DNA of 64,000 nucleotides from an uncultured Lachnospiraceae bacterium (GCA_947574135.1 CANPIM010000001.1:57447-121446); one strand, 5' to 3'; positions 8,049 to 23,646 are shown, numbered from the stretch's first letter. Notes: a model not told the origin generated them from the sequence alone. Program-made: numbers and translations.

Positions 8049-8375
8049 TTACTCCAGATGATAAACCTCTTCCATATCAGACCAGAACTCTCCTTCTGCC
8101 CGATCCTCCAGGGGCTCCATGAGGGGCGTGACTGCATCCCACCATTTCTGGGTGGCCGGGTCTGCCGCCATCATGGCCATATCTGCCTCATAATCATCCC
8201 CATCATACTCAAAATAGGAAAACATGTAGTCTCCTCTCTGATAGATGGAGTAATTCTTCAGATGGCATTTCTTAATCATCTCATTGACACCCGGGAAGGG
8301 ATTGGCGTGATAAGCCTTGTACTGCTCCACTCCCTCGGGTTTTACCTTGATCATCTGTCCAAATCTGCGTACCAT
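8049..8375 (-). CDS. rhaM: L-rhamnose mutarotase
   Basis: RFGQMIKVKPE..EQYKAYH, NYSIY, LFSYFEY-like segment, WW..V and W.DMEEVYHL. ATG at 8375. Confidence 0.88.
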   Translation of the reverse strand: MVRRFGQMIKVKPEGVEQYKAYHANPFPGVNEMIKKCHLKNYSIYQRGDYMFSYFEYDGDDYEADMAMMAADPATQKWWDAVTPLMEPLEDRAEGEFWSDMEEVYHLE

Positions 8376-8446
8376 TTTCGTTCCGTCCTTTCCCTTGTTA
8401 TCCTGCGGCTGTTTTTGACCGCACATGTTAGCTGAAAGCCCAGGCC

Positions 8447-9496
8447 CTATTCGTAGATCTTGTTGGCCTCGTCAAACAGCGCCTTGATATTTCTGGGGGG
8501 AACATCCGGCTGCAGTCCCTCGTGGCTGGGAGAAATAATCAGTCCTGTGGGGAAGTAGCCTCTCAGCTCCTTCACCTTGTCGGCCACCATCTCCGGTGTG
8601 CCGTGGGGAAGAAGATCCTGGGTATCCACGCCGCCGCAGAAGGAAACCTTTCCCTCGAACTTGGCCTTCAGATTTGCCGGATCCATGCCGGCCGCCAAAG
8701 CCTGGATGGGATGAATCACATCCACGCCCGCCTCAATGAGAAGGGGAATGGCCTCCACAATGGAGCCGCAGGAGTGGTATACCACCTTTACCCCATAGCT
8801 GTGGGCCAGATCAATAAGCTTTTTCGCTCCTGGGATTACAAACTCGGAGATCAGCGCCGGACTGATCATCAGTCCTCTCTGGCTTCCCACATCATCGCCG
8901 ATGAGAATGGCGTGAACCTTTCCCTTGGTAGCCTCCAGGAAAATCTTCAGAGCCTTTAAATAAAATTCCACAATCTTGTCATCCACATAGTGAACCATTT
9001 CCGGCTCTGCCACCATATTCATGAGGCAGGTCTGCATGCCAAAGGATGCGCACACATCCTGGAAATGGCAGGCCCAGAGCATTCCCATCACTACCTTGTC
9101 GTCAGGAGCCTCGTCTACCAGGCGCCTGCACTCCTCCGGATCGATATAGAGCTCCGGATCCGGCCAGGGGAAATTCACGGCCTTCACATCCTCCAGATCC
9201 TCACAGTGGGTAAAGCATCCGTCCGCTGTCAGGGTCCGGTGCTCCGTATCCACATTGCTGCCGTTCATATACCAGTCAAAGGCTGCGAAAATCGCGGAGC
9301 AGGTGGGGGATTTGTAGGGAATCTCCACTGCGTAGAAGTCATCGCCGCAAACCTTTTTCAATTCCTTAATGTCCTTTACCCCATAAAAATCACACAGGGC
9401 CGGAACTGCATCCGGTGTGGGGTCTCCCAGCCAGCAGGCGGGTCTGTCTACCGGCTTTCTCTCTACGGTTGCTTTAAAACGTTCGATACTGTTCAA
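8447..9496 (-). CDS. UroD/MtaA-CmuA family methyltransferase-like protein
   Basis: GDDVGSQRGLMISP, YHSCGS, GVDVIHPIQ, FCGGVDTQ and ISPSH. Confidence 0.88.
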   Translation of the reverse strand: MNSIERFKATVERKPVDRPACWLGDPTPDAVPALCDFYGVKDIKELKKVCGDDFYAVEIPYKSPTCSAIFAAFDWYMNGSNVDTEHRTLTADGCFTHCEDLEDVKAVNFPWPDPELYIDPEECRRLVDEAPDDKVVMGMLWACHFQDVCASFGMQTCLMNMVAEPEMVHYVDDKIVEFYLKALKIFLEATKGKVHAILIGDDVGSQRGLMISPALISEFVIPGAKKLIDLAHSYGVKVVYHSCGSIVEAIPLLIEAGVDVIHPIQALAAGMDPANLKAKFEGKVSFCGGVDTQDLLPHGTPEMVADKVKELRGYFPTGLIISPSHEGLQPDVPPRNIKALFDEANKIYE

Positions 9497-9523
9497 CTTC
9501 TTCCCCTCCTGTTTTCTCTCAGA

Positions 9524-10807
9524 TTACCACTGACAAGGTGTAAAGTCTGCTACATTATCCTTGTTGATAACGTCGGTTCCAATGTAGGATACACGGCTGA
9601 TATCCACGCCATTGAAATACTCAGCCATGGTTCTAACGGCAAGACCGGCGTCACCCTGGCAGGACTGATAGCTCATCATGTACAGATCTCCGCTCTCAAC
9701 CAGCTCTGCACCCTGCTTGGAGATACCGGCGGCCACTACCAGAATGTCGCTTCTGTTGGCAGCCTTGATAGCCTCTACTGTACCGATGGCCTGGTCGGAG
9801 TCGTCTGCCAGCACAATGGCCTTCAGATCATCGCCATGCTTGGTGATCCAGTCGGCTACCACCTGCTTCACAGCAGCTGCCTCAAATCCCGGAGACTGAA
9901 TATCCAGGGTCTTGATGTTGGGATACTTTTCAGCCAGCTCGGTCAGAGGACCATAGCAGCGTGCATAATAGGGAGAACCGCCTACATTATGGGTAATATA
10001 AGCCACACCGCCTTCTCCGTTCATAGCCTCTCCCAGAGAATCAGCCAGAGTTCTCATCTGATACCAGTCATTGGGGCCGGTAAATGCCATAACATAGTTC
10101 ATAGCATCTGCATTTACTGTGGTGTTCACACAGAAGGCCGGGATGCCTGCATCGGTGATTTTCTTAAACTGCTGAGCCGCATGATCCGCACTTACGGGGA
10201 TAACGCCAATGGCATCAGGCTGCTCATTGATAGCCTGGTCAATATAGCCGTCCTGTGTGGACTGATCCCAGTTGGGGTCATAGATATCACAGGTCATGCC
10301 CACAGCCTCACAGGCCTGCTCAAAGGCCTCGGAGAAGCAGGTGGTCCATGCATGTGCGCCATGTACGATCATAATGACATGCTTGCCCTTGCAGCCGTCA
10401 GCCGGGGAAGCGGGAAACTCTGCATCCTGGCTCTCATCCCAGTCCAGATACTCATAGAAATGCCACTTTGCAGAATCGCTGTCATCCAGAGCCTCCAGCT
10501 CCTCTGCAGTACCCTCTGCAGCCGGTACGTCAAAGGTCACGCCGGGAGCCAGCATGGGATGTCCGTCTGTGGTCATGAGAGTTGCAACAGCCTCGTCAAA
10601 GAGCGCCAGGGACTCATCCAGATTACTTCCGCCGCCTTCAGCCGGTGCCTCAGCCTCATCGCCGCCCTCTGCGGCCGGCTCGCTTTTCTGCTCCTGCTCC
10701 TGGGTCTGGGCCGGAGTGGAATCATCTCCGGAGCTTCCGCAGCCTGCCAGACAGCCTGCCACAACCATCACTGCACTCAGTAAGATTGCTAAACTTTTTC
10801 TTTTCAT
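9524..10807 (-). CDS. Monosaccharide ABC transporter substrate-binding lipoprotein (RbsB-like, type 1 PBP)
   Basis: Lipobox LAGC, acidic linker and a PBP1 core (DQAINEQPDAIGVIPV; GIPAFCVN). Confidence 0.9.
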   Translation of the reverse strand: MKRKSLAILLSAVMVVAGCLAGCGSSGDDSTPAQTQEQEQKSEPAAEGGDEAEAPAEGGGSNLDESLALFDEAVATLMTTDGHPMLAPGVTFDVPAAEGTAEELEALDDSDSAKWHFYEYLDWDESQDAEFPASPADGCKGKHVIMIVHGAHAWTTCFSEAFEQACEAVGMTCDIYDPNWDQSTQDGYIDQAINEQPDAIGVIPVSADHAAQQFKKITDAGIPAFCVNTTVNADAMNYVMAFTGPNDWYQMRTLADSLGEAMNGEGGVAYITHNVGGSPYYARCYGPLTELAEKYPNIKTLDIQSPGFEAAAVKQVVADWITKHGDDLKAIVLADDSDQAIGTVEAIKAANRSDILVVAAGISKQGAELVESGDLYMMSYQSCQGDAGLAVRTMAEYFNGVDISRVSYIGTDVINKDNVADFTPCQW

Positions 10808-10875
10808 CTTTCTTCCTCCTGTTTTGATTTCTATAATAAAAGCCTTCGCCTTTATTACCCAATGAAATATGCTTC

Positions 10876-11895
10876 TCAGCCCTTTCCTATTTCCTTTAAA
10901 TACTCCTGATGAAGATTGGGCCGGGTTCCCAAAACCTTGCTCTTTCTATACTGGGCAATGGTTTCATAGCAGATACAGGCAATGAGGATAATGGCAATCA
11001 CCAGCACCTGCATCTCCGTCTTTTTAAAGAGGGCTCTCAGGAATGCCACGGCAACCAGGGATATGTAGGTATTCAGCACGCTGCCGTGTCCGCCCGCAAT
11101 ATCGGTTCCTCCGATAATGGTGGCCGTCAATGCAATCATCAAAGGCGCAATTCCTTTCTCACCCATGCTGATATTGGCCGCTCCGGAATAGATTCCGTTT
11201 AAGGCTCCCCCCAGGGCACAGCAGGAGGAGGAGAGCACAAAGGCCACAGTCGTCACCTGATTGCTCTTTACGCCGGCCAGCCAGGCTGTCTCCAGGTTGC
11301 CGCCCACCATGTAAATATTTCTGCCGGTCCTGGTATTTCTCATAAAGATCATGACAATCACAATGACCAGGGTAGTAATCAGGAAATACAGGGAAAAGGG
11401 CACTCCCGGAATCAAGGCTCCGTTCAGGGCCTCATTAGCCGTATAATCCCGGCCGATGCTCTGCTCCTCGGGGGAGTACATATACATCACGCCCCGCAGC
11501 ACAAACTGCATACCCAGAGTAGCGATAAAGGAATGGATCTTAAGCTTGGTCACCAGAAATCCATTGATAAGCCCCACCAGCACTCCCATACAGGTGGCGA
11601 TAAGAATACAGACCAGCCACGGAAGCCCCTGGCGGGAATGAAGCCCCAGACACAGAAGAGCTGCCAGAGTGGACACGTACTGCACCGTCAGGTCCATATG
11701 CCCTGCAATGAGGCAGATGGTAAAGCCCAGGCCCAGCCACATGACCAGGCTGCCGTTTCCGGTTACGGAATTGATATTAAACGCTGTAAAAAAGTTGTTT
11801 CTGAAAATGCCTGCAAACAATACGATCAGCAGGAAAAGATATGCCCGGTTATTGTTCAGAAAGCTTCCGTTAATCTTAATTTTTTTTCTTTCCAT
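10876..11895 (-). CDS. Sugar ABC permease (RbsC-like)
   Basis: Hydrophobic; GHMDL, FIATLG, TRTGRNIYMVGGN and IIGGTDIAGG.GS. Confidence 0.93.
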   Translation of the reverse strand: MERKKIKINGSFLNNNRAYLFLLIVLFAGIFRNNFFTAFNINSVTGNGSLVMWLGLGFTICLIAGHMDLTVQYVSTLAALLCLGLHSRQGLPWLVCILIATCMGVLVGLINGFLVTKLKIHSFIATLGMQFVLRGVMYMYSPEEQSIGRDYTANEALNGALIPGVPFSLYFLITTLVIVIVMIFMRNTRTGRNIYMVGGNLETAWLAGVKSNQVTTVAFVLSSSCCALGGALNGIYSGAANISMGEKGIAPLMIALTATIIGGTDIAGGHGSVLNTYISLVAVAFLRALFKKTEMQVLVIAIILIACICYETIAQYRKSKVLGTRPNLHQEYLKEIGKG

Positions 11896-12947
11896 CAGCC
11901 TTTCCCCAACTTTCTTTCCGAATAAGTGTTAATCCATACGATTGCCAGGAATACCACGCCCTGTACGGCGTATTTGGTGTAGGTGCCAAGACCTATCCAG
12001 GACAAAATATTATTCAGGATTCCATAGGCCAGCACGCCTCCCAGAGTGCCCACCACGGAGCCCTGGCCGCCTCCCAGAAGCGTTCCGCCCAGAAGCACAC
12101 AGGTCAGACAGGAAAAGTCATAGCCAGTACCGTTCTCATAGGAAGCCGTCTTTCGAAGGGCTGCGTAGAAGATGCCGCCCACAGCCGCCGCCGTGCTGCA
12201 GAGCACATAGGACATGGTCACCACCTTGGTACAGTTGATTCCGGAAAACCGGGCCGCCTCATAGCTGGTACCCACCAGCTTTAGCTTCTGGCCAAAGGAG
12301 GTCTTGGAATGGATAAACCAGGAAATGGCAAAGAGCACCAGCATCACAATGGCCATGAGAGATATGACGCCTCCGATATAGGTTCTGGAAATGGAGTAAA
12401 AGGTGTTTGCCGCATTCTGGGCATATTCCGTATCTGCCGCCACGCTGTCTGCATACAGCTGCTTTCCGCCCCACACCACCCGGATAATTCCGGAAAGCAG
12501 AAGGTTGAAGCCCCAGGTCCAGATAATGGGATTGGCCTTTAATTTACCAATCATAAAGCCGTTGATAAGTCCGATGCACACGCCGGACAAAAGACCGATG
12601 GCCAGTGCAATGGGGAAGCCCAGGTTGATGCTCTGCACGGTCATCATACCGGCCATAGCCATGGTCAGGGGAATGGACATATCGTTCATGTTTCCCGCAT
12701 ATACCACATAGATCAGGCCGCTGCACACCATGCCCTGGAGGGCTACGGCCTCCAGAATGGACTGGACATTGCTGGCGCCAAAGAAGCTGCCTCCATTGAC
12801 CATGGCGATAATCATGCCCATAACCACCAGGGCCACAACGATCACCCAGATTCCCAGCTTATTGAAAAGAATGATTCCTTTGTTAATCTCTGTCTTTCTG
12901 GTGTCCACCTTTGCCGGGTTGGGATTGTTATTTACTTGTTCTGACAT
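11895..12947 (-). CDS. Sugar ABC permease (RbsC-like)
   Basis: Hydrophobic; FGQKLKLVG...EAARFSGI and LLGGTLLGGGQGS. Confidence 0.93.
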   Translation of the reverse strand: MSEQVNNNPNPAKVDTRKTEINKGIILFNKLGIWVIVVALVVMGMIIAMVNGGSFFGASNVQSILEAVALQGMVCSGLIYVVYAGNMNDMSIPLTMAMAGMMTVQSINLGFPIALAIGLLSGVCIGLINGFMIGKLKANPIIWTWGFNLLLSGIIRVVWGGKQLYADSVAADTEYAQNAANTFYSISRTYIGGVISLMAIVMLVLFAISWFIHSKTSFGQKLKLVGTSYEAARFSGINCTKVVTMSYVLCSTAAAVGGIFYAALRKTASYENGTGYDFSCLTCVLLGGTLLGGGQGSVVGTLGGVLAYGILNNILSWIGLGTYTKYAVQGVVFLAIVWINTYSERKLGKG

Positions 12948-14476
12948 GTTACATACTCTCCTTTCCCATTGGCCGCGATCAACAGGGAATTCTCCGTGAT
13001 GCCCTCCTTTGGTATCTCGCCGATGATATGGCCCTCTCTCAGGATAACCGCCCGGTCACATAAGCCTACCACCTCCGGCAGGTCGCTGGAGATGAGAATC
13101 ACCGCATTGCCCTGCTCCACATATTTTTTCACCACATTGTGGATAATCTGCTTTGCGTTTACATCCACGCCTCGGGTGGGCTCATCCAGAATCAGCACAT
13201 CCACGTCCGCTGCCAGCCATTTGGCCATGAGCACCTTCTGCTGATTTCCACCGGAAAAGCTGTTCACCCGGCGGTTCCGGTCTGCGGGATACACGCTCAT
13301 CTCATTGATTTTCTCGTCCACCAGATCATTGTTCCAGCCGTTGGAATACAGGATTCCCTTGGAGTACTTGTCAATCACACAGGACATGACATTATCGGCC
13401 ACACTCTGGGTCAGCGCCAGCCCCACCACCTTGCGATCCTCGGTAAGATAGCCTACACCGGCCTTGATGGCCTCCCCGAAGTTTTTGAATTTCACTTCTT
13501 TTCCGTGGAGATAAACCCTGCCTTTGTCGTAGGCGTCCACCCCGATAAGGGCTCTTGCAATCTCGGTCCGGCCTGCGCCGGCCAGGCCGCTGATAGCCAG
13601 GATCTCTCCCTTGTGCAGCTCAAAATCCACATGATGGAAGAAGCCCCACCGGGTAAAGTCCTCCACCTTCAAAACCACCTCGTCGGAAATTTTGCTTCCG
13701 CTCTCCGCGTAGAAGCTCTTCACCGGCTCGCCTACCATCTGCTCTACCAGCTGCTCTGTATTGATCTCGCTGACATCGCACTCTCCCACCTTTCGTCCGT
13801 CCCGCATCACCGTTACCCGGTCTGCGATCTCGAAAATCTCCGACATATGATGGGATATGTAAATAATAGCCAGTCCCTCTTCCTTAAGCTTGCGGATAAT
13901 GTCAAACATCCGCTGCACCTCTTCTCTGGAGAGGGAGGAGGTGGGCTCATCCATAACCAGAATCCGGGGCTGGGCGTCCAGCACCTTGGCAATCTCCACC
14001 AGCTGGGCATCACACTGGCTGATGTCTGCAATATTGATGGTGGGATCCAGGTTTCCCAGTCCTACCCGCTCCAGACATTCCCTGGCTCTGGCAATGGCCG
14101 CCTTTTTGTCGATAAACAGAGCATTTTTCTTGGGAAGGCGTCCCACCAGAAGATTCTCATAGATGGAAATCCGGCGGGCCAGGGACAGCTCCTGATACAC
14201 CATACCAATGCCGGCCTCCTTGGCCATAATAGGCGTATGCAGCTTTTTCTTTTCCCCCTCAATAAAAATCTCGCCGGTATAATCATTGAACAGACCGGCC
14301 AGCACCTTCATCAGCGTGGACTTTCCGGCTCCGTTCTCCCCCATAAGCGCGTGGACCTCTCCCTTTTTTACCCGGAAATCCACACGGTCAACGGCCAGAG
14401 TACCGGGGAACCGCTTGCTCACGCCGCGCATTTCCAATGCCAGGACCTCTCCCGTTCCTTTTGGTTCTTGACTCAT
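12932..14476 (-). CDS. Sugar ABC transporter ATP-binding protein (RbsA/MglA-like, two NBDs)
   Basis: Walker A GENGAGKST, MDEPT, SGGNQQK and LDEPTRGVD. Confidence 0.96.
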   Translation of the reverse strand: MSQEPKGTGEVLALEMRGVSKRFPGTLAVDRVDFRVKKGEVHALMGENGAGKSTLMKVLAGLFNDYTGEIFIEGEKKKLHTPIMAKEAGIGMVYQELSLARRISIYENLLVGRLPKKNALFIDKKAAIARARECLERVGLGNLDPTINIADISQCDAQLVEIAKVLDAQPRILVMDEPTSSLSREEVQRMFDIIRKLKEEGLAIIYISHHMSEIFEIADRVTVMRDGRKVGECDVSEINTEQLVEQMVGEPVKSFYAESGSKISDEVVLKVEDFTRWGFFHHVDFELHKGEILAISGLAGAGRTEIARALIGVDAYDKGRVYLHGKEVKFKNFGEAIKAGVGYLTEDRKVVGLALTQSVADNVMSCVIDKYSKGILYSNGWNNDLVDEKINEMSVYPADRNRRVNSFSGGNQQKVLMAKWLAADVDVLILDEPTRGVDVNAKQIIHNVVKKYVEQGNAVILISSDLPEVVGLCDRAVILREGHIIGEIPKEGITENSLLIAANGKGEYVTCQNK

Positions 14477-14509
14477 ACTGTCTTTCCTCCTCTTTTCTCT
14501 ACTGCTCGG

Positions 14510-15148
14510 TTACCCTAAAATCTCCCGTACCTTGGAAGCCATGGCCTTGCCCAGTCTCTCGTGAGAATCCGGATGCATATGTACCCCATCCACTGTGGCG
14601 GCCTTTCCGTACAGGGACGCGTCCAAAAAGGCAAGACCTGCGCCCTCTGCAAATTCCTTATAAGCCTCGGCCAGGGCCTGGGAGCGCTCTGTCCCGTACT
14701 CTCCAAACATATCGTAAAACAGGGGATGATTTTTGTAAGAGGGATCAATATGGATGGGCGATACCAGGAGAACCTTGGGCTTCTCTCCCGCCATGGGAGT
14801 GATGCTCAGCACGTCCAGATACCGCTGGAGGCCAAAGGCAATGGTGCGGGCGCTTACCCCGAACCGGGCCTTCAGATCGTTGGTACCCAGCATCAGAATC
14901 ACCAGATTCAGGGGAGACTGGGAGTCACAGCAGGGCCCAAAATATTTGATGCCGCTTAAGCGTCCCTCCAGCACATCCTCAAACACGGAAACCCGGCCGT
15001 TGTAGCCCTCCTCAATGACCTGATAACCTTCTCCCAGCTCCTTTTGCAGAACTCCCGTCCAGCGCACATCCTCCGGATATCTGCTTCCATCCTCCGGCAC
15101 CGCGCCCCAAGTATTGGAATCCCCATAACATAATACCCTCTTTTTCAT
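14510..15148 (-). CDS. SGNH/GDSL hydrolase (esterase)
   Basis: Blocks YGDSNTWG, EEGYNGR, LGTND and DGVH. Confidence 0.93.
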   Translation of the reverse strand: MKKRVLCYGDSNTWGAVPEDGSRYPEDVRWTGVLQKELGEGYQVIEEGYNGRVSVFEDVLEGRLSGIKYFGPCCDSQSPLNLVILMLGTNDLKARFGVSARTIAFGLQRYLDVLSITPMAGEKPKVLLVSPIHIDPSYKNHPLFYDMFGEYGTERSQALAEAYKEFAEGAGLAFLDASLYGKAATVDGVHMHPDSHERLGKAMASKVREILG

Positions 15149-15250
15149 TCAAACCTCCCGTTTCCTTTGCATACTCTGTCATTTTGTTATCTCTTATCTT
15201 CTATTATAGCAAATCCTCCGTCATATTCAACAAATGTTTGTTTTTAAATT

Positions 15251-15261
15251 TAAACGTTTCA
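15251..15261. promoter_or_regulatory. LacI-type operator candidate
   Basis: TAAACGTTTCA between divergent promoters (extended -10 TGCTATAAT on minus at 15203-15211; TTGACA at 15282). Near-identical to 19731-19741. Confidence 0.55.
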
Positions 15262-15350
15262 CCATTAAATTTAAATTTAACTTGACAATTTATCTAATTT
15301 TAATTCATAATAAACTCATATTTTGTATACTTTTTGTATGGGAGAATCTT

Positions 15351-17603
15351 ATGACAACCTTAAAAGAAGTGGCCGAGCTGGCCGGTGTGTCCATCGCCAC
15401 CGTTTCCTACTGCATCAACGGCACCAAAAACATCAAGCCTGAGACAAGACTCAAGGTCATGCGGGCCATTGAGGAGCTCAATTACATTCCCAACCGCTCT
15501 GCCAAAAATCTCCGGGAGCCTGACAACCGGGAGATTGGTATTGTGATCCCGGATATTGAGGATCACTATTATTCCGAGATCCTAAAGGGCATTGTATATG
15601 AGGCGGAAAATGCCAATTATGCCCTGAATATCGCCTTTACCTACCGGGCTCCCAACCAGGAGTGCAAGATTATCCAGGATTTTATCAGCCGGAATGTGAG
15701 CGGCCTGGCCATTCTCACCTGCCAGCCCTCCAACACGGATTTTTTCAAGAACAGTGTGGTGCGCTACCACATTCCCTGTGTTTTTATTGACCGGATTCCT
15801 CAGGGGTTGAACGTAAACTTTCAGACCTTTGACAATTATACCACCATTCACTATCTGACCCGGCAACTGCTCTTGCATGGCTATCAGACCATCGGGCTTA
15901 TGACCGGGCCGGAGGATCTTCTGAGCGAATCGGACTGTATCTATGCCTTTACCGATGCCCATATTGAGCACAAGAAGGTCTATTATCCCGATCACATTCA
16001 TTCCTGCGATATGACCAAGGAGGGGGCTTTTCGCATTTTTATGAATTCCCTCCACAAGGGCATTCCCCAGGCTATTATCTCCTCCTCAGAGGATATGACC
16101 AAGGGCATTGTGGAGGTGTTAAACCTGTGCCATATCCGGATTCCGGAGGATATCTGTGTCATTACCCTTGGGGTGGAGTGCTGGAACAGCTCCAACTACC
16201 ATCCCCATGTGCTCCACACCTCCAGACAGGCCTACACCCTTGGGAAAAACTGCTGCCAGCTTCTTCTGCGCAACATCCAGTCCCCCCATCTCTTTGAGCC
16301 GGAATTTATGCTCCATCAGGAGCGCCACCTGGAGGACTCTCTGGTATTTCCCCCGCCTCCCAGGCCCTTCTCCTTCCCCACCAGCCAGAGGAAGCTTAAG
16401 ATTTTGGCTTTGTCCCTGCCCACGGTCCGGGCTCTGGACGCAGTTTCCCTGGAGTTTTCCCGGCTTTACGGCGCCCAGGTGGACATCGACTACCTGCCCA
16501 TGCGGGAGCTCTTTCACGCCATCTGCCAGGATTCCCGCAGGCTCCAGAGCGAATACGATGTCTATGTGGTGGATGTATCCTGGATGCGCTATCTGATTCA
16601 GGAGAAGCTTCTCATGGATATCACGGACTTTATCCAGTCCTGTACCCTGGAAACCGCCCATATGATACCGAAAAACCTGGAGAACTGCTGCTACAAGGGC
16701 CGGTATTACGGCCTGCCCATTATCGGCGGCACTCATCTGCTTTTTTACAGGAAGGATTTCTTTAACAGCACCAAGCTACAGCAGGCCTTTAAGGAGCAGC
16801 ACCATATCTCCCTTCGGCCTCCCAAGACCTGGACGGAATTTAACGGCATCGCCCGCTTTTTCACCCGATCCTTAAACCCGGAGTCTCCCTCCACCTATGG
16901 CACCTCCCTGCCTGCCTCCATGAGCGAGGAGCTGGCCCTGGAGATCCTGGTCCGGCTCTGGAGCTTTGGCGGCGGCCTCTTTGACCAGAATAACCGGCTG
17001 CTCTTAAATACCCCCCAGAATCTCCGGGGTTACCAGAGCATCCTGGAGACCTGCTCCTACGCGTCTCCCCATTTTATGACCCACAACCACCAGAAATCCT
17101 TCCAGGATTTCAGCACAGGAAAAACGGCCATGCTCATCTCCTTTACGGAGTATGCGGGGGATCTGAAAAACTATGTGCCCAACGATATGCTCTCCAGCGT
17201 GGGCTACTGCACCCTTCCCGGAGGCACGCCGGCCAATGTGGGCTGGCAGATGGGCATCAGCAAATCCACAAAAAATAAGGCCCTCATCGAGGACCTGTTT
17301 AAATGGATCTGCACCAAGCATACCAGCTATTACCTGACCATTCTGGACGGACAGGCTGTTATGAAATATCCCTACCAGAACCATGAGCTCCTGAAGCTCT
17401 ACCCCTGGCTGGACTTAACAGACGAGGGCATCCGCCTTTCCCACTCCCGCATCTATCCCCTACGGGGAAAGACCAGCAATGTTCCACCCTATCAGGTGGA
17501 GGCCGTGCTCTGTCAGACCTTTTACCAGATCTGGGAGAACGGCATGCCCATTGAGGAGGCTTTGGCGGATGCCCAGAAAGAGCTGTATCGTCTTTTTGCT
17601 TAG
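15351..17603 (+). CDS. LacI-family regulator fused to a C-terminal family-1 sugar-binding (type 2 PBP) domain
   Basis: MTTLKEVAELAGVSIATVS HTH, PBP1 effector domain, then YYGLPIIGG..LFYRKD and PPKTWTEF. Start moved to ATG 15351 (GGAG upstream). Confidence 0.9.
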   Translation: MTTLKEVAELAGVSIATVSYCINGTKNIKPETRLKVMRAIEELNYIPNRSAKNLREPDNREIGIVIPDIEDHYYSEILKGIVYEAENANYALNIAFTYRAPNQECKIIQDFISRNVSGLAILTCQPSNTDFFKNSVVRYHIPCVFIDRIPQGLNVNFQTFDNYTTIHYLTRQLLLHGYQTIGLMTGPEDLLSESDCIYAFTDAHIEHKKVYYPDHIHSCDMTKEGAFRIFMNSLHKGIPQAIISSSEDMTKGIVEVLNLCHIRIPEDICVITLGVECWNSSNYHPHVLHTSRQAYTLGKNCCQLLLRNIQSPHLFEPEFMLHQERHLEDSLVFPPPPRPFSFPTSQRKLKILALSLPTVRALDAVSLEFSRLYGAQVDIDYLPMRELFHAICQDSRRLQSEYDVYVVDVSWMRYLIQEKLLMDITDFIQSCTLETAHMIPKNLENCCYKGRYYGLPIIGGTHLLFYRKDFFNSTKLQQAFKEQHHISLRPPKTWTEFNGIARFFTRSLNPESPSTYGTSLPASMSEELALEILVRLWSFGGGLFDQNNRLLLNTPQNLRGYQSILETCSYASPHFMTHNHQKSFQDFSTGKTAMLISFTEYAGDLKNYVPNDMLSSVGYCTLPGGTPANVGWQMGISKSTKNKALIEDLFKWICTKHTSYYLTILDGQAVMKYPYQNHELLKLYPWLDLTDEGIRLSHSRIYPLRGKTSNVPPYQVEAVLCQTFYQIWENGMPIEEALADAQKELYRLFA

Positions 17604-17622
17604 ACGCCTGCTTCTATGGCAG

Positions 17623-18264
17623 TTATGCAGTGGCGGCCAGCTTCTTTGCAAGCTGTGCTGCGCTGGCTGCATCCTCACTGTAGCCGTCGGCGCCAATCTC
17701 ATCTGCGAAGGCCTGGGTAATGGGGGCTCCGCCTACCATGATCTTAATTCTATCCCGGAAGGGCTGCTCGTTGAGAGCTGCAACCGTATCCCGAAGAGCC
17801 GGCATGGTGGTGGTCAGAAGAGCAGAGCAGCCAACCAACGTTGCATCCGGATTCTCATTTACGGCCTCTATAAATTTCTCTATGGGTACATCGATGCCCA
17901 GATCAATCACCTCAAAGCCGGCGCTCTCGATCATCATGCCAACCAGGTTCTTTCCGATATCATGCAGGTCTCCTGCAACGGTTCCCAAAATCATCTTTCC
18001 TGCAGAAGAGGTTCCGCCGCTGGCCAGATGGGGCTTTAACACCTCCACACCCTTCTTCATAGCCCGGGCAGCCACCAGCATCTCCGGCACGAAGATCTCG
18101 TTATTCTTAAACTTTTCGCCTACCACGCCCATGGCGTCAATCATGCCCTGATTCAAAATCTCAACGGGATCGCAGCCTTCGTCGAGGGCTTCCTGCACAA
18201 GTCCTCCCACCAGCTTTGCCTTTCCTTTTTCAACGGCTTCTGCAACTTCCTGAATTTTCGACAT
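17623..18264 (-). CDS. Methyltransferase corrinoid (B12-binding) protein
   Basis: Cap domain (G...M..VG..F...EIFVPEM), DLHDIGKNLV B12 motif, SALLTTT and VGGAP. Confidence 0.96.
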   Translation of the reverse strand: MSKIQEVAEAVEKGKAKLVGGLVQEALDEGCDPVEILNQGMIDAMGVVGEKFKNNEIFVPEMLVAARAMKKGVEVLKPHLASGGTSSAGKMILGTVAGDLHDIGKNLVGMMIESAGFEVIDLGIDVPIEKFIEAVNENPDATLVGCSALLTTTMPALRDTVAALNEQPFRDRIKIMVGGAPITQAFADEIGADGYSEDAASAAQLAKKLAATA

Positions 18265-18398
18265 TTTCCAGTCCTCCTTGTATTTTGTTCACAACCACCA
18301 TGAATTCCATTCATGTTACTCTTATTTTAGCTTTTTCCCACAAAAACCGCAAGCAAAATGCCCAAATTTCTTTCCTACAGAATGTTTGAATTCTCTCC

Positions 18399-19649
18399 CT
18401 ATTTTCTGGCATTTTGTACAGCCCTGTACATGGCCATAATATTTTCCGGGGGAACATCCGGCAGAATATTGTGTTCCGTGTTAAATACAAAGCCTCCGTC
18501 ATGGTGGAAGATGTCGATCATCCGACAGGTGTACTCGTACACCTCCTCCGGTGTGGCGTGGTTTAAGACCGAGCGGGTATTGCAGCCACCGCCCCAGAAG
18601 GTGATGTCCTTTCCGAACTCCTTCTTTAACCGGGCAGGATCCATCTGGTAGGCTGTGGTCTGCACCGGATTGATGATATCATAGCCCGCGTCAATGAGAT
18701 CTCCCATCACGCCGTAGATGGAGCCGCAGGAGTGGAGGAAGGTTTTCATATGGCTGTGGGTATGTACATACTCGTTAAGCTTGGTGTGATAGGGCTTAAA
18801 CAGCTCCCGGTACTTCTCCGCGGACATAAACATGTTCTTATCCATGCCCAGGTCATCCCCAAACCGCAGAATGTCCACCACGTCTCCCACAGCCGCACAG
18901 GTCTTTTCCAGGGTGTGGAGATGGCGCACCATGAGCTGCTCAATAAGCTCCTCCACGCTTTCCGGCTCCGCGTAGATATCCATCAGGAAGTTCTCCATCC
19001 GGCGCAGGAAGGTGCCCCACTCAAAAAGATTACAGCCGCAGGTAATCATCAGAGCCCGATCCGTGCTGGCCCGAAGCTTCAGGCACCGCTCCCTGAGATC
19101 TGCATAGAAGGCATCCTCTGTGGGGAAATCCTTCATATGATCCCAGGGCCCGTGCACCAGCGCGCTCCAGAGCACCTGTCCCATGGCATGATCCAGATCG
19201 TCGTAATTATCCGGATAGTCCTCCTTGTAGGGGAAAATCATCTGGTCAAAGCACATGCCTCCCTTGGGCATCCGGGCAATGAGCACCCCGTCCTGGTACA
19301 CATCGTAGCCACCGTCCGCGGTTTTTACCGGCTGAAACCAAGCGGGCCACTGACCGATTTTGCCATTGCTTAAGGTCACATCGTACCAGTCGCTGTCCTT
19401 CTCATTATATACCCGGGCCACGTCTAAGGCATCGGCGCCAATAAGATCCAGCACACACTCCTCCGGCTGGGCCACCTGCTGTACCACGTCGTAAATCCGG
19501 GTATGCCCCTCCTTCATTCCCAGATGCTCCTTTAAATTGGCATAGGCCTGGCCGGAGATTCCCGCGCTCACATTGCTGCCCAGATCCATGGGCAGATAAT
19601 CCGGCTCTTTATGGTTGATGGCTGCTAACACACGTTCTCTTGAAGTCAT
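18399..19649 (-). CDS. UroD/MtaA-CmuA family methyltransferase (candidate MT1), upstream of the corrinoid protein
   Basis: MTSRERV, FGDDLG, FLHSCGS, INPVQ, FWGGG and GGFVFN.EHNI. ATG at 19649. Confidence 0.9.
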   Translation of the reverse strand: MTSRERVLAAINHKEPDYLPMDLGSNVSAGISGQAYANLKEHLGMKEGHTRIYDVVQQVAQPEECVLDLIGADALDVARVYNEKDSDWYDVTLSNGKIGQWPAWFQPVKTADGGYDVYQDGVLIARMPKGGMCFDQMIFPYKEDYPDNYDDLDHAMGQVLWSALVHGPWDHMKDFPTEDAFYADLRERCLKLRASTDRALMITCGCNLFEWGTFLRRMENFLMDIYAEPESVEELIEQLMVRHLHTLEKTCAAVGDVVDILRFGDDLGMDKNMFMSAEKYRELFKPYHTKLNEYVHTHSHMKTFLHSCGSIYGVMGDLIDAGYDIINPVQTTAYQMDPARLKKEFGKDITFWGGGCNTRSVLNHATPEEVYEYTCRMIDIFHHDGGFVFNTEHNILPDVPPENIMAMYRAVQNARK

Positions 19650-19730
19650 ATGTACACACCTCTTTCTTTTTGATAACCCCATTATAGCGCACAAAAGAAA
19701 GAAAAGGCGGCTTTTTCCCAAATAAAAATC

Positions 19731-19741
19731 TAAACGTTTTA
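19731..19741. promoter_or_regulatory. LacI-type operator candidate
   Basis: Palindromic TAAACGTTTTA just upstream of TTGACC (19750) of the second LacI fusion gene. Confidence 0.55.
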
Positions 19742-19841
19742 CTTTTCTCTTGACCTTTCCCCGGGCTCTCTGCTACCATGGATCCAAAGAATCCACACAG
19801 CTCTCTCAAAAAAGAATTGGACAAGAAAGGAGCCTGCACCT

Positions 19842-22163
19842 ATGGCAACCTTAAAGGATGTGGCCAGAGACGCCGGCGTCTCCATGGCTACGGTTTCCTG
19901 CTGCCTTACGGGCAGCAAGCCTGTAAAGAAATCCACCCGCATGAAAATCCTGGACTCCGTGGAACGGCTAAAATACATTCCCAACGCCTCCGCCCGGAAC
20001 CTGAGATCCCCCCGCTCCCGGCTGATCGGGGTGGTCCTCACGGATATTGACAACCTGTACCACGCGGAAATTTTTAAGGGAATCTCCAGCACCCTCCAAA
20101 GCCAGGGCTATACGGTGAGCGTGGCCTTTTCCAACAACCAGCCGGATCAGGAATGTGAAATTATTAACGATTTTATCAGTCAAAATGTGGCAGGCCTTCT
20201 CCTTATTACCTGCCAGCCCCAAAATACGGATTTTTTTCAGAGCCGCATTCTGAATTTTCATATTCCCGCCGTTTTTTTGGAGCGGATCCCCCTGGATCTG
20301 GACGTATGTCTGGCAGGCTTTCAAAATGAAGAGACCACCTTTTTCCTCACAGACGCTCTTCTTAAAAAAGGCTACAGGCAAATCGGTCTGGTCCTGGGAC
20401 CTCCCTCCTTCTCCTCGGAGCGGGACTGTATCCTGGGCTATCAGCGGGCCTTTGTTAAAAATGGTCTCTCCCCGGACTCTTCTCTTATCTGCACCACCAA
20501 CCTGACCAAGGAAGATGCCTTTAAAACCGTGCTCACCACCTTAAGCAAGCGTCCCCTGGAGGCGGTGATCTCCTCCTCGGAAACCCTGCACTGGGGATCC
20601 CTGGAGGCCTTAAAAAACCGGGGCCTTTCCATCCCCGGACAGGTTCTTCTGCTCACCTTTGGGGAGGAGTCCTGGAGCCAGGCCCACCGGACCCCAGGGG
20701 TTATCTATACCTCCCGGACTGCCTTTCACCTGGGCTCCTGCGCCGCAAGCCTGCTATGGAAGCATATCCGTTACCCGGACTGTACGGAAAAAACCCGGAT
20801 TCTGTCGGATTCCATTCTCAGGGAGGTCCTGGATATTCCGCCGGTTGGCCAGAAATGCTCTCCCAAGGCCAATCCCCTTGAACAGGGGGCCCCGGAGAAG
20901 GTGTGTCCGTCCAGCACGGACATGCAGCTTCGCGTCCTTCTGGCGGATCTGTCCACGGCCCACAATGTGGAGCTCCTAAGCGATTCCTTTACCCGTGGCA
21001 CCGGTATCCGCCTCTCCTTTCAATATCTTCCCCAGAAGGAGCTGCTGCCCTATATCAGCCATCACTCGGAGGAGACCCAGGCCTTTGACATTTGCATGTA
21101 TGATATTCCCTGGCTGGATTATCTGGTGCAGAATTCCCTGCTTATGGATCTCACGGATTTTATCACTGGGGGAGATTTTCACCCGGAATATATTTTCCCG
21201 GAAAACATGGAAAACTGCCGCTGTCAGGACGGCTACTACGGGATTCCCCTTATTGGCGGCTCTCAAATCCTCTTTTATCGAAGGGATCTCTTTGAGGACA
21301 GCCAATGCCAGAAGCTCTATTACAAGCTTCATGGCATTCCCCTAAAGCCGCCCCGGACCTGGACGGAATTTAACCGGATCGCCGCCTTTTTCACCCAGGG
21401 GGAGAATCCCCAATCCCCCACCCTGTTTGGCACCTCCCTGGCTGGCATCACCGATGAGGAGCTGGCCCCGGAGCTTTTGATTCGCCTCTGGGCCATGAAC
21501 GGCCGCCTGTGGGACGCCTACAACCGCCCCTGCCTGAACTGTCCGGAAAATCAGGCGGCCCTTATGAGCGTCCTGGAGACTCTGCGCTACACAGGCTCCC
21601 ATCCCTTTGCCACCTCCATCCCTCAGACCGTGGAGGATTTCTCCCAGGGCAGGACAGCCATGCTCATCACCTACACGGAATACGCCACCCAAATCAGCCG
21701 AAGCCTCCACGAAAATATTATCGGTCAGGTGGGCTATAAGATTTTGCCCGGAAGGCGCCCTGCCAGCATTGGCTGGAATCTGGGGGTAAACCCCTATTCT
21801 CAAAGGCTCTCTCTGGCCTGCCGGTTTTTTGGATGGCTCTGCCAGAAGGACACCAGCTTTTATATGACCATCCTGGACGGACAATCCCCGGTTATGGCTC
21901 CCTACCACAGCCTGGAGCTTTTAAAGCTCTACCCCTGGATGTCCATTACAGAGGAAAGCTTCTCCTACACCCAAAAAAGAAAAGGACCCTATAAGCATAA
22001 GGCCCTTGTGGTTCCCCAAAATAAGATAGAAGCCATTCTCTGTCAAACCCTTCGGCAAATTCTCCTGGAGGGCTCCTCCGTCTCCCAGGCTCTTTCCGAC
22101 AATCAGGAGCGGCTTAAAAGCCTTCTTTTGTCCTACGGCTATCCCCGGCCCTTTACCAGATAG
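19842..22163 (+). CDS. Second LacI/solute-binding fusion regulator (paralogue of 15351..17603)
   Basis: MATLKDVARDAGVSMATVS HTH. The C-terminal part has YYGIPLIGG..LFYRRD and PPRTWTEF. Confidence 0.9.
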   Translation: MATLKDVARDAGVSMATVSCCLTGSKPVKKSTRMKILDSVERLKYIPNASARNLRSPRSRLIGVVLTDIDNLYHAEIFKGISSTLQSQGYTVSVAFSNNQPDQECEIINDFISQNVAGLLLITCQPQNTDFFQSRILNFHIPAVFLERIPLDLDVCLAGFQNEETTFFLTDALLKKGYRQIGLVLGPPSFSSERDCILGYQRAFVKNGLSPDSSLICTTNLTKEDAFKTVLTTLSKRPLEAVISSSETLHWGSLEALKNRGLSIPGQVLLLTFGEESWSQAHRTPGVIYTSRTAFHLGSCAASLLWKHIRYPDCTEKTRILSDSILREVLDIPPVGQKCSPKANPLEQGAPEKVCPSSTDMQLRVLLADLSTAHNVELLSDSFTRGTGIRLSFQYLPQKELLPYISHHSEETQAFDICMYDIPWLDYLVQNSLLMDLTDFITGGDFHPEYIFPENMENCRCQDGYYGIPLIGGSQILFYRRDLFEDSQCQKLYYKLHGIPLKPPRTWTEFNRIAAFFTQGENPQSPTLFGTSLAGITDEELAPELLIRLWAMNGRLWDAYNRPCLNCPENQAALMSVLETLRYTGSHPFATSIPQTVEDFSQGRTAMLITYTEYATQISRSLHENIIGQVGYKILPGRRPASIGWNLGVNPYSQRLSLACRFFGWLCQKDTSFYMTILDGQSPVMAPYHSLELLKLYPWMSITEESFSYTQKRKGPYKHKALVVPQNKIEAILCQTLRQILLEGSSVSQALSDNQERLKSLLLSYGYPRPFTR

Positions 22164-22167
22164 AGGG

Positions 22168-23646
22168 CTAGAACTGCACCGGGGTCACATCCTCCGTGAG
22201 AGGAGCCATGCGGTACTCCGGAAACTGGTCCAAAAGCTGATCCAGGCACTCTGCCGTCTCCTCAATGACGTCATGGCCCAGCATGACCACGTTTTTTCGC
22301 CCCAGGGTGCTGGAAACCGCGCTCTCTATAATGTCCGCCTCCCTGGGCTCCCTTACCGCATCCTCGAAGCTGGCATTCCAGTCATAGTACACATAGCCCT
22401 GACTTTCCAGCTCTGCCGCAATTTTCTGGCGGACCGCCTTGTTGTACTGGTTAACGCTGCCCCCGGGAAACCGAAACAGCCTGGCATCCACCCCGGTGAC
22501 CTCCTCAATGATGGCATGAGCACTGGAAAAATCTTCCAGATACGCATCCACACTGGCATAAACCTCCTTGTAGTCGTGGTGATTGCAGTGGATACCAATG
22601 GTATGTCCCTCCGCCGCAATGCGCCGGGCCACCTCCGGATATTTCTCCACATTCTCCCCTATGAGGAAAAAGGTGGCCTGCATATTGTGAGCCTTCAGGG
22701 TATCCAGCACCTTCTCCGTATTCTCCTTGGAGGGGCCGTCGTCAAAGGTCAGGTACATGGTCTTGGGATGAAAATACAGATCGATCCCAGCAGCCATGCC
22801 GGCGGCGATCTGCTGCTGATAGCCTGCATCCGTAAGCTGCTGCCGCTCGGCCCGGTTGGAGAGAAAGCCCGTCTCCACCAGGCAGGAGGCCATACCGCAC
22901 TCCCGGATCACATAGAGCGTCTCCTCCTCCCGAATCTCCCGTCCGTCTGCGCCGGTATTTTCCAGAATCCCTGTCTGGATAAGCCGGGATAACCGTCTGC
23001 TCTGATCTCCCGCGTTCTGCGCGCTGTACCACACCTCCATTCCCGTTACCTTTGCCACCTCGCTGGCATTCTGATGAATGCTCACAAAAAGGTCCGCCTG
23101 GGCCGTCTCGGCCAGCTTTACCCGCTCCTCCAGGCTGAGCGCCTGATCCGTATCCCGGGTCATCTGCACCTGATAGCCCATGCTTTGAAGCTCCCTTCCC
23201 ACCGCCTGGGCAATCTGCAGATTGATCTCCTTTTCCTGCACCCCGTCCCGCACACAGCCGTCATCCGCTCCCCCGTGTCCCGGATCCAGAACCACCAGAA
23301 GCTCCCCGGCCTCCTTTAAGGTCGCCCCCGGGGGAAAGCCGGGAAGGGTCTCCTCTATCCTTGCGGCTTCCTCCGCCTGGGCCGCCATTTCCGTGGCCGG
23401 CAAAAGCACCGGCTGCACTCCGGTGGCTACAAGAAAGTCCTGCTCGGCGGACTCTGCCGTCCGCATACGCCCTGCCAGGCTTCCCGCCCCATAGTTGAGG
23501 GCCGCCGCTCCCAGAACTGCCGCCAGAAGCAGAGCCCCACTTCTTAAGACCCGACGCCTCCACCTTCTCTTCCAGTTCCTCCTCTCACGGTATACTCCAA
23601 TATATCCTGCACAGACTTCCCCTGCATAAATTTCCGTTCTCCGCAT
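22168..23646 (-). CDS. N-acetylmuramoyl-L-alanine amidase (Amidase_3) fused to a NodB polysaccharide deacetylase
   Basis: N-terminal TM segment; amidase motifs LDPGHGG, EKEINL, SIHQN, LVETGFLSN; NodB motifs LTFDDGPS, HCNHH, FRFPGG, DWN, LGHD. Confidence 0.92.
   Translation of the reverse strand: MRRTEIYAGEVCAGYIGVYRERRNWKRRWRRRVLRSGALLLAAVLGAAALNYGAGSLAGRMRTAESAEQDFLVATGVQPVLLPATEMAAQAEEAARIEETLPGFPPGATLKEAGELLVVLDPGHGGADDGCVRDGVQEKEINLQIAQAVGRELQSMGYQVQMTRDTDQALSLEERVKLAETAQADLFVSIHQNASEVAKVTGMEVWYSAQNAGDQSRRLSRLIQTGILENTGADGREIREEETLYVIRECGMASCLVETGFLSNRAERQQLTDAGYQQQIAAGMAAGIDLYFHPKTMYLTFDDGPSKENTEKVLDTLKAHNMQATFFLIGENVEKYPEVARRIAAEGHTIGIHCNHHDYKEVYASVDAYLEDFSSAHAIIEEVTGVDARLFRFPGGSVNQYNKAVRQKIAAELESQGYVYYDWNASFEDAVREPREADIIESAVSSTLGRKNVVMLGHDVIEETAECLDQLLDQFPEYRMAPLTEDVTPVQF

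Follow-up and report, generated by a model that had tools for sequence, protein, structure and literature searches.

In this study, we analysed a 64,000-nucleotide stretch of DNA from an uncultured Lachnospiraceae bacterium (GCA_947574135.1 CANPIM010000001.1:57447-121446; hereafter the window), which encodes two related proteins of 750 and 773 amino acids (aa), here called reg1 and reg2. Judging from their sequences, both are almost certainly cytoplasmic LacI/GalR-type DNA-binding regulators that carry a normally extracytoplasmic fold. Each begins with a LacI helix-turn-helix (HTH), continues with the type-1 binding-protein core of this regulator family and ends in a further domain that resembles the solute-binding proteins (SBPs) of CUT1 sugar transporters. 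Domain boundaries obtained with Pfam and with AlphaFold and Foldseek bear out this three-module architecture, which had been described in an earlier note on the same DNA. As was also described there, reg1 is divergent from a run of esterase, ATP-binding cassette (ABC) transporter, methyltransferase and rhaM genes, and reg2 from a methyltransferase and a corrinoid protein gene. The two proteins, which the note had called paralogues, align from end to end with 41% identity (E = 0).

In both proteins all three modules are recognized by Pfam above the curated cut-offs. The LacI HTH covers residues 3-48 (PF00356, 70.5 bits in reg1 and 52.0 bits in reg2; cut-off 27), Peripla_BP_1/3/4 domains cover residues ~60-320, and SBP_bac_1 and SBP_bac_8 match residues 400-657 of reg1 and 381-672 of reg2 (PF01547, 78.5 and 48.8 bits, respectively; cut-off 26). 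The type-1 core has sequence matches in the PDB at E ~1e-27, and the N-terminal 320 residues resemble named LacI-family regulators (RbsR, CcpA, CytR and others) in NCBIfam, in this case only below threshold; no NCBIfam equivalog was found for reg1 or reg2. The HTH residues, A51 and Leu54, the hinge residue that aligns with L56 of LacI, are at least 90% conserved across the family of fused proteins described below. The claim that an extracytoplasmic fold sits in a cytoplasmic regulator is upheld by the lack of a signal peptide and of a transmembrane segment in either protein, both N-termini being occupied by the HTH. The highest mean Kyte-Doolittle hydropathy over 19 residues is 1.33 in reg1 and 1.21 in reg2, compared with 2.34 in the lipoprotein SBP of the adjacent transporter (9524-10807). 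The start codon of reg1 is the ATG at 15351, which has a GGGAGA ribosome-binding site in front of it. A longer frame of 789 aa from the in-frame ATG at 15234 was rejected as an improbable start with an odd, AT-rich leader.

AlphaFold2 models built with a family alignment reached a mean predicted local distance difference test (pLDDT) score of 94.2 and a predicted template-modelling (pTM) score of 0.89 for reg1, and 92.4 and 0.87 for reg2, where disorder is confined to linker residues ~342-357 (pLDDT <50). Since pTM values of 0.87-0.89 were obtained for chains of two modules, the arrangement of the modules relative to each other appears to be defined in the models, and in both of them the hinge residues 49-55 are predicted to form a helix. 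When the reg1 model was compared with the PDB using Foldseek, the N-terminal half matched the DNA-bound forms of RbsR, CcpA, PurR and LacI with template-modelling (TM) scores of 0.72-0.75 (on target), whereas the C-terminal half matched CUT1 SBPs with scores of 0.81-0.86, among them 5IAI (0.86), a sophoro-oligosaccharide binder (0.85) and 1EU8 (0.81). No PDB chain spanning both halves was found by Foldseek, and sequence searches of the PDB agree with this split. The model of the SBP-like domain is nearer to ligand-bound than to apo SBPs, as its TM score to Thermotoga maritima MalE3 is 0.84 for the maltose-bound form and 0.75 for the apo form.

The fused architecture is not peculiar to this genome, which has exactly two copies, but is an old and fixed family. 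Using reg1 as query, at least 243 clusters at 90% identity were retrieved (E <=0.001), the best 120 of which are all ~750 aa long and nearly all have the same Pfam set, and with reg2 as query at least 215 clusters at 90% identity were obtained (E <=1e-150), which likewise agree in length and Pfam set. When the C-terminal domain alone was used in a search without a word index, it found 289 clusters at 50% identity (E <=1e-30), nearly all of them proteins of 730-780 aa in which the domain occupies positions ~350-750, and distant members of the family keep the LacI HTH. The ESM Atlas likewise holds many LacI + SBP_bac_1 clusters, the biggest with 693 members. The family is concentrated in the Lachnospiraceae, with named carriers including Blautia schinkii, Robinsoniella peoriensis, Anaerotaenia torta, Muricomes, Herbinix, Oscillospiraceae and a Desulfosporosinus. 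The members in B. schinkii and R. peoriensis fall into the reg2 clade. Among 200 sampled genera of the window's own family, 12-14 have a full-length member, with at most four copies per genome; a phylum-wide sample of 400 genomes gave a fused-type match in one further genome only. Domain copies of 419-452 aa without the regulator part also occur in public metagenome proteins (for example P0127 and P0226, 419-422 aa). The P0127 and P0226 copies begin exactly at the first strand of the domain and have no signal peptide, and the 422-aa form is present on several contigs of 8-12 kb; such copies may come from genuinely split genes or from disrupted ones.

In the source databases (NCBI and JGI), members of the family are nearly always named "extracellular solute-binding protein" or "multiple sugar transport system substrate-binding protein". 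Taken at face value, these names would suggest that the proteins are genuine extracellular SBPs; alternatively, a fusion could have been created where adjacent genes were joined by a sequencing or assembly error. We consider either explanation barely credible. The label is misleading because the protein begins with an HTH, and this N-terminus in place of a signal peptide, the lack of a transmembrane segment and the recurrence of the same fused length in hundreds of clusters from independent assemblies effectively refute both an exported SBP and a chance fusion. Furthermore, the neighbouring transporter belongs to the CUT2 type and has a lipoprotein SBP of its own.

A palindrome centred on CG, AAT(T/C)TAAACGTTTA(A/G)ATT, is present upstream of both reg1 and reg2 and represents a candidate operator (Table 1); apart from these two sites, the 3.4-Mb genome contains no copy of the 13-mer GTRAAACGTTTAR. 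In 20 related loci from other genomes, the search for the motif covered 260 bp in front of the regulator gene. Fifteen of these loci have a regulator with at least 31% identity. An exact AAACGTTT core, mostly inside TCTAAACGTTTAGA, was found in 14 of them and a core with a single mismatch in the other (L031), so that the motif lies upstream of the regulator in all 15; by our estimate an exact 8-mer is expected by chance ~0.004 times per region. The motif is missing from the upstream regions of the five most distant paralogues. A weight matrix derived from these sites gave no further site scoring >=18 in the window's genome, and in L032-L037 it detected additional sites, which were not part of its training set, in the neighbourhood of genes for methyltransferases, ABC transporters and esterases. 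DNA binding and local action of reg1 and reg2 would appear to have good comparative support, because the palindrome as well as the HTH and the hinge Leu are conserved. The sites of the reg1 and reg2 clades differ in their flanks (TTTAAACGTTT[C/A]ACC vs TCTAAACGTTTAGA), and the recognition-helix region has the clade-specific residues Y20C and N23S. The two regulators may discriminate between their own sites, or there may be cross-talk between them.

Scans for promoter hexamers, which are weak evidence, predicted TTGACA-18-CATAAT for reg1 and TTGAAT-16-TATAAT for the esterase operon around the first site, and TTGACC-18-TACCAT for reg2 and a perfect TATAAT at 19686-19681 for the methyltransferase gene around the second. 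Relative to the predicted -35 boxes, both candidate operators are on the upstream side, a position that resembles that of operators at promoters activated by CcpA. In some orthologous loci, a second site is found 14-45 bp before the start codon of the methyltransferase gene. On this evidence reg1 and reg2 could be repressors or activators, and the word repressor would be no more than the default label of the LacI family. An Rfam search of the whole window gave no match to a riboswitch or any other RNA family.

The earlier note had further raised the question whether the architecture co-occurs with corrinoid methyltransferases. A survey of the 20 related loci by tblastn and Pfam, combined with a maximum-likelihood tree of 22 regulators including reg1 and reg2, showed that this is true of a part of the family and not of the architecture as a whole. 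The link with methyltransferases coincides with one clade of 11 regulators (support 100/99), in which the adjacent operon contains a methyltransferase gene at 10 of the 11 loci, whereas outside this clade even a weak URO-D match was seen at only two of 11. Within the clade, reg1-type regulators are paired with orthologues of the 349-aa methyltransferase of the window and reg2-type regulators with orthologues of the 416-aa enzyme; in L031 and L032, orthologues of the 349-aa enzyme (85-89% identical) are directly divergent from the reg1 orthologues. The regulators outside the clade are found beside CUT2 transporters with other enzymes, for example a GH20b-domain protein or a xylose-isomerase-like TIM barrel. 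In the window and at most related loci, the permeases are of the CUT2 and not the CUT1 type and are accompanied by their own Peripla_BP_4 SBP. The two regulators do bracket the methyltransferase/corrinoid pair in the window, as was noted previously, but this arrangement is lineage-specific and found in this genome only. In a genome of the same genus (G015; loci L031 and L037), the reg1 and reg2 orthologues are found on separate contigs and two or three paralogues of greater distance are present as well, and in a genome of another genus (G036; L032) the only regulator is of the reg1 type and both methyltransferase genes have candidate operator sites in their vicinity.

Which of the two binding-protein modules senses an effector can be approached from their conservation. 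On alignment with Escherichia coli LacI, and depending on this alignment, the canonical effector-pocket positions Arg197, Asn246 and Asp274 correspond to Cys196, Ser246 and Gly274 in both reg1 and reg2. C/A/F, S and G are the most frequent residues at the three positions in 135 members of the family, and the Arg and the Asp are both kept in three of four ordinary LacI paralogues encoded in this genome. By these comparisons, the classical type-1 effector pocket is at least non-canonical. The SBP-like domain has retained hallmarks of CUT1 SBPs (D403, D408, W411 and the motifs YRxD, PPxTW and GW) that it shares with the trehalose/maltose-binding protein, and the CUT1-type closure Asp and Trp residues are at least 90% conserved across the family. 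Asp80 of mycobacterial LpqY and Asp70 of a Thermus protein bind sugar and have been implicated in lobe closure (PMC7949145). D408, which is part of a D-x-x-W motif, would match these residues by motif-based mapping rather than by direct alignment. Family-wide, 40 positions of the SBP-like domain are conserved to at least 80%, compared with 11 in the core, and in the closest orthologue pairs the ratio of non-synonymous to synonymous substitution rates is ~0.18 in the SBP-like domain, compared with 0.11-0.12 in the core and 0.36-0.97 in the linker. These values indicate that the protein makes use of the SBP-like domain and that purifying selection maintains it. We favour, with some reservation, the view of a regulator in which the effector is sensed mainly by the SBP-like domain, the core serving as a dimerizing scaffold for signal transmission.

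Several observations weigh against this view. Many of the conserved residues in the SBP-like domain are general hallmarks of the fold, and the stacking aromatics W62, W230 and W340 of E. coli maltose-binding protein are not conserved at the aligned positions (hhalign, probability 99.5%). The positions that distinguish the reg1 clade from the reg2 clade occur at similar densities in all domains (four in the HTH, five in the core and 11 in the SBP-like domain). The place of the window operators upstream of the -35 boxes would be unusual for simple steric repression. In addition, the extra domain is more conserved than the core even though the clades control different loci, and since it is conserved across such clades, a shared ligand or a structural role would fit equally well.

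The earlier suggestion of a two-ligand sensor, in which the type-1 core and the CUT1 domain each bind a small molecule, for example the methylated and the demethylated form of a sugar, and the two signals are integrated, seems to us unlikely. Consistent with it, each module is complete, has been modelled with high confidence and is subject to purifying selection, and the family-conserved residues E104, R148, E224, F227 and W278 of the core could make a non-canonical site. However, the canonical Arg197, Asn246 and Asp274 are gone family-wide, two working pockets are not evident, the specificity positions do not single out two pockets and there is no sign of two distinct ligands. Sensing by the extra domain alone has at least the same probability as the sensing of two ligands.

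A structural role would mean that the SBP-like domain binds no ligand and acts instead as an oligomerization module, which might allow DNA looping in the manner of the LacI tetramerization helix, or as a docking surface, with sensing located in the altered core or absent. Three related loci (L033, L035 and L036) have paired operator sites 436-600 bp apart, and the position of the candidate operators outside the predicted core promoters as well as the family-wide conservation of the domain, whatever genes are controlled, point in the same direction. Against this, each of the window loci has one site only, and a two-lobed, closed-like domain of 400 aa would be a costly means of dimerization. In addition, working CUT1 SBPs typically have an Asp for sugar binding and closure as well as Trp residues, and these are at least 90% conserved in the family. 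We regard a purely structural role as quite improbable.

Returning to the SBP-like domain as the main sensor, we propose that reg1 and reg2 each bind, as a dimer, to AAT(T/C)TAAACGTTTA(A/G)ATT in their own divergent intergenic region, and that the bound regulator would control its own gene together with the divergent operon. For reg1, this operon would comprise the esterase, the CUT2 ABC transporter, a methyltransferase and the mutarotase, and for reg2 the methyltransferase and the corrinoid protein. A sugar-like ligand would be taken up in the cleft between the two lobes of the SBP-like domain, and the signal would be passed on to the LacI core through a defined interface. The domain that binds the ligand, the identity of this ligand and the choice between repression and activation are the points in this scheme that we infer.

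The neighbouring genes (Table 1) give some indication of what this ligand might be. The 416-aa methyltransferase had been listed as a 440-aa open reading frame from the TTG at 19721; its true start is probably the ATG at 19649, because homologues align from residues 16-25 and an AAGAGG ribosome-binding site precedes this ATG. No terminator-like site was found between this gene and the corrinoid gene, and the two are probably co-transcribed; the 3' end of the corrinoid gene faces that of reg1. The corrinoid protein is MtgC-like and scores 215.1 bits with the pyl_corrinoid model, for which the cut-off is 215.3. There are four URO-D/MtaA-family matches in the window, all on the minus strand (1446-2492, ~2508-2936 and the two genes of Table 1), and one corrinoid protein only, and the whole 3.4-Mb genome has ~12 URO-D matches and three B12-binding matches; several methyltransferases may share one corrinoid carrier. 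The gene content of the 8049-15148 run suggests that a methylated, perhaps acetylated, deoxy-sugar is taken up and then O-demethylated with the help of a corrinoid. Our literature search for corrinoid-dependent demethylation of sugars found no such pathway, and a preprint on the mlp cluster does not mention LacI or sugar genes (PMC10418091). Extending our proposal in this direction, the family could have undergone a sensor swap, in which the type-1 pocket was retired to a scaffold with a part in transmission and a recruited, full-size CUT1 domain became the effector sensor; in the clade of reg1 and reg2 this domain would sense a methylated, possibly acetylated, sugar that enters through the CUT2 transporter and is O-demethylated in a corrinoid-dependent manner. 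We put this forward only tentatively. Beyond reg2, a single 492-aa protein is encoded at 22168-23646 on the minus strand, which combines an N-acetylmuramoyl-L-alanine amidase (CwlD-like) and a polysaccharide deacetylase (PdaB/PgdA-like) domain. The GC skew is negative in all 2-kb bins of the window (1-64000), ranging from -0.03 to -0.25.

Table 1. Positions of the regulator genes, their modules, the candidate operators and the neighbouring genes in the window
Feature	Position	Strand	Remarks
reg1	15351-17603	+	750-aa LacI-type regulator with C-terminal CUT1 SBP-like domain
reg1, HTH	15351-15524	+
reg1, type-1 core	15525-16325	+
reg1, linker	16326-16385	+
reg1, SBP-like domain	16386-17600	+
reg2	19842-22163	+	773-aa paralogue of reg1
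reg2, HTH	19842-20015	+
reg2, type-1 core	~20016-20822	+
reg2, linker	~20823-20921	+	Disordered
reg2, SBP-like domain	~20922-22160	+
Candidate operator 1	15247-15264		AATTTAAACGTTTCACCA; imperfect CG-centred palindrome between two predicted divergent promoters (esterase operon/reg1)
Candidate operator 2	19727-19744		AATCTAAACGTTTTACTT; between reg2 and the divergent methyltransferase gene
URO-D/MtaA-family methyltransferase, 416 aa	18399-19649	-	PF01208; MtaA/CmuA subfamily below cut-off; divergent from reg2
Corrinoid protein, 213 aa	17623-18264	-	B12-binding_2 and B12-binding; downstream of the 416-aa methyltransferase gene
GDSL esterase	14510-15148	-	First gene of the operon divergent from reg1 (Pfam)
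CUT2-type sugar ABC transporter	9524-14476	-	Pfam
ATPase of the CUT2 transporter	12932-14476	-	Two nucleotide-binding domains
CUT2 permeases	11895-12947, 10876-11895	-	BPD_transp_2
Lipoprotein SBP of the CUT2 transporter	9524-10807	-	Peripla_BP_4; LAGC lipobox
Second URO-D/MtaA-family methyltransferase, 349 aa	8447-9496	-	PF01208
rhaM	8049-8426	-	L-rhamnose-mutarotase-family protein; end of the esterase-ABC-methyltransferase run

These findings have consequences for annotation, since hundreds of clusters and probably thousands of proteins that are named extracellular SBPs are almost certainly cytoplasmic transcription factors, and relabelling them alters how transporters and regulons are reconstructed in Lachnospiraceae and in related Clostridia from gut and soil. 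With regard to mechanism, two stacked binding-protein modules, of which the core appears to lack the canonical effector residues, represent a natural experiment in the rewiring of allostery, and as LacI/GalR proteins are a heavily engineered family, the fusion could supply parts for biosensors. With regard to the pathway, genes for URO-D/MtaA-type methyltransferases, a corrinoid protein, a sugar ABC transporter, an esterase and a mutarotase are linked with one another through the conserved candidate operator, and this link may provide a handle on the substrates of the widespread and poorly understood bacterial MtaA-like methyltransferases, as the ligand of the regulator should be a substrate or an intermediate of the pathway.

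Compared with known regulators of the LacI/GalR family such as LacI, PurR, RbsR and CcpA, reg1 and reg2 have the same HTH_LacI domain, hinge helix with its Leu and type-1 core, and a palindromic candidate operator centred on CG in their own, divergent promoter region. In LacI/GalR proteins the hinge Leu acts as a lever that pries open the central CpG. The two proteins differ from these regulators in the addition of ~400 C-terminal residues that form a second, type-2 binding-protein domain, in the replacement of R197/N246/D274 by C/S/G and in the location of their candidate operators relative to the predicted -35 boxes. With CUT1 SBPs such as the Thermococcus litoralis trehalose/maltose-binding protein (1EU8), T. 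maritima MalE3 (6DTQ) and Arad_9887 (5IAI), the C-terminal domain shares the SBP_bac_1/SBP_bac_8 match, the two-lobe fold (TM 0.81-0.86), the Asp of the D-x-x-W motif and the YRKD, PPxTW and GW motifs, at a sequence identity of only 16-21%. However, in reg1 and reg2 this domain is fused behind a DNA-binding regulator without a signal peptide or lipobox, and no CUT1 permeases (MalF/MalG-type, BPD_transp_1) are encoded nearby, the neighbouring transporter being of the CUT2 type. As neither export nor a transporter partner is indicated, the C-terminal domain is not a transport SBP. With corrinoid-dependent methyltransferase systems, the locus has in common a corrinoid protein and methyltransferases of the MtaA/URO-D type (416 aa and 349 aa).

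The use of a binding-protein fold as a cytoplasmic sensor is in itself well known. LysR-type regulators employ a type-2 fold and E. coli XylR a type-1 fold with an AraC HTH for this purpose. The architecture is less exotic than it had been made out to be: the extra CUT1 domain is real, but even without it a LacI core has the fold of a periplasmic binding protein, and public databases contain many such fusions. Unusual is the stacking of a complete CUT1 domain on a complete LacI protein, an architecture on which our literature search found no paper. Whereas LysR-type regulators and XylR contain one binding-protein module, reg1 and reg2 combine a complete type-1 and a complete CUT1 type-2 module in one chain.

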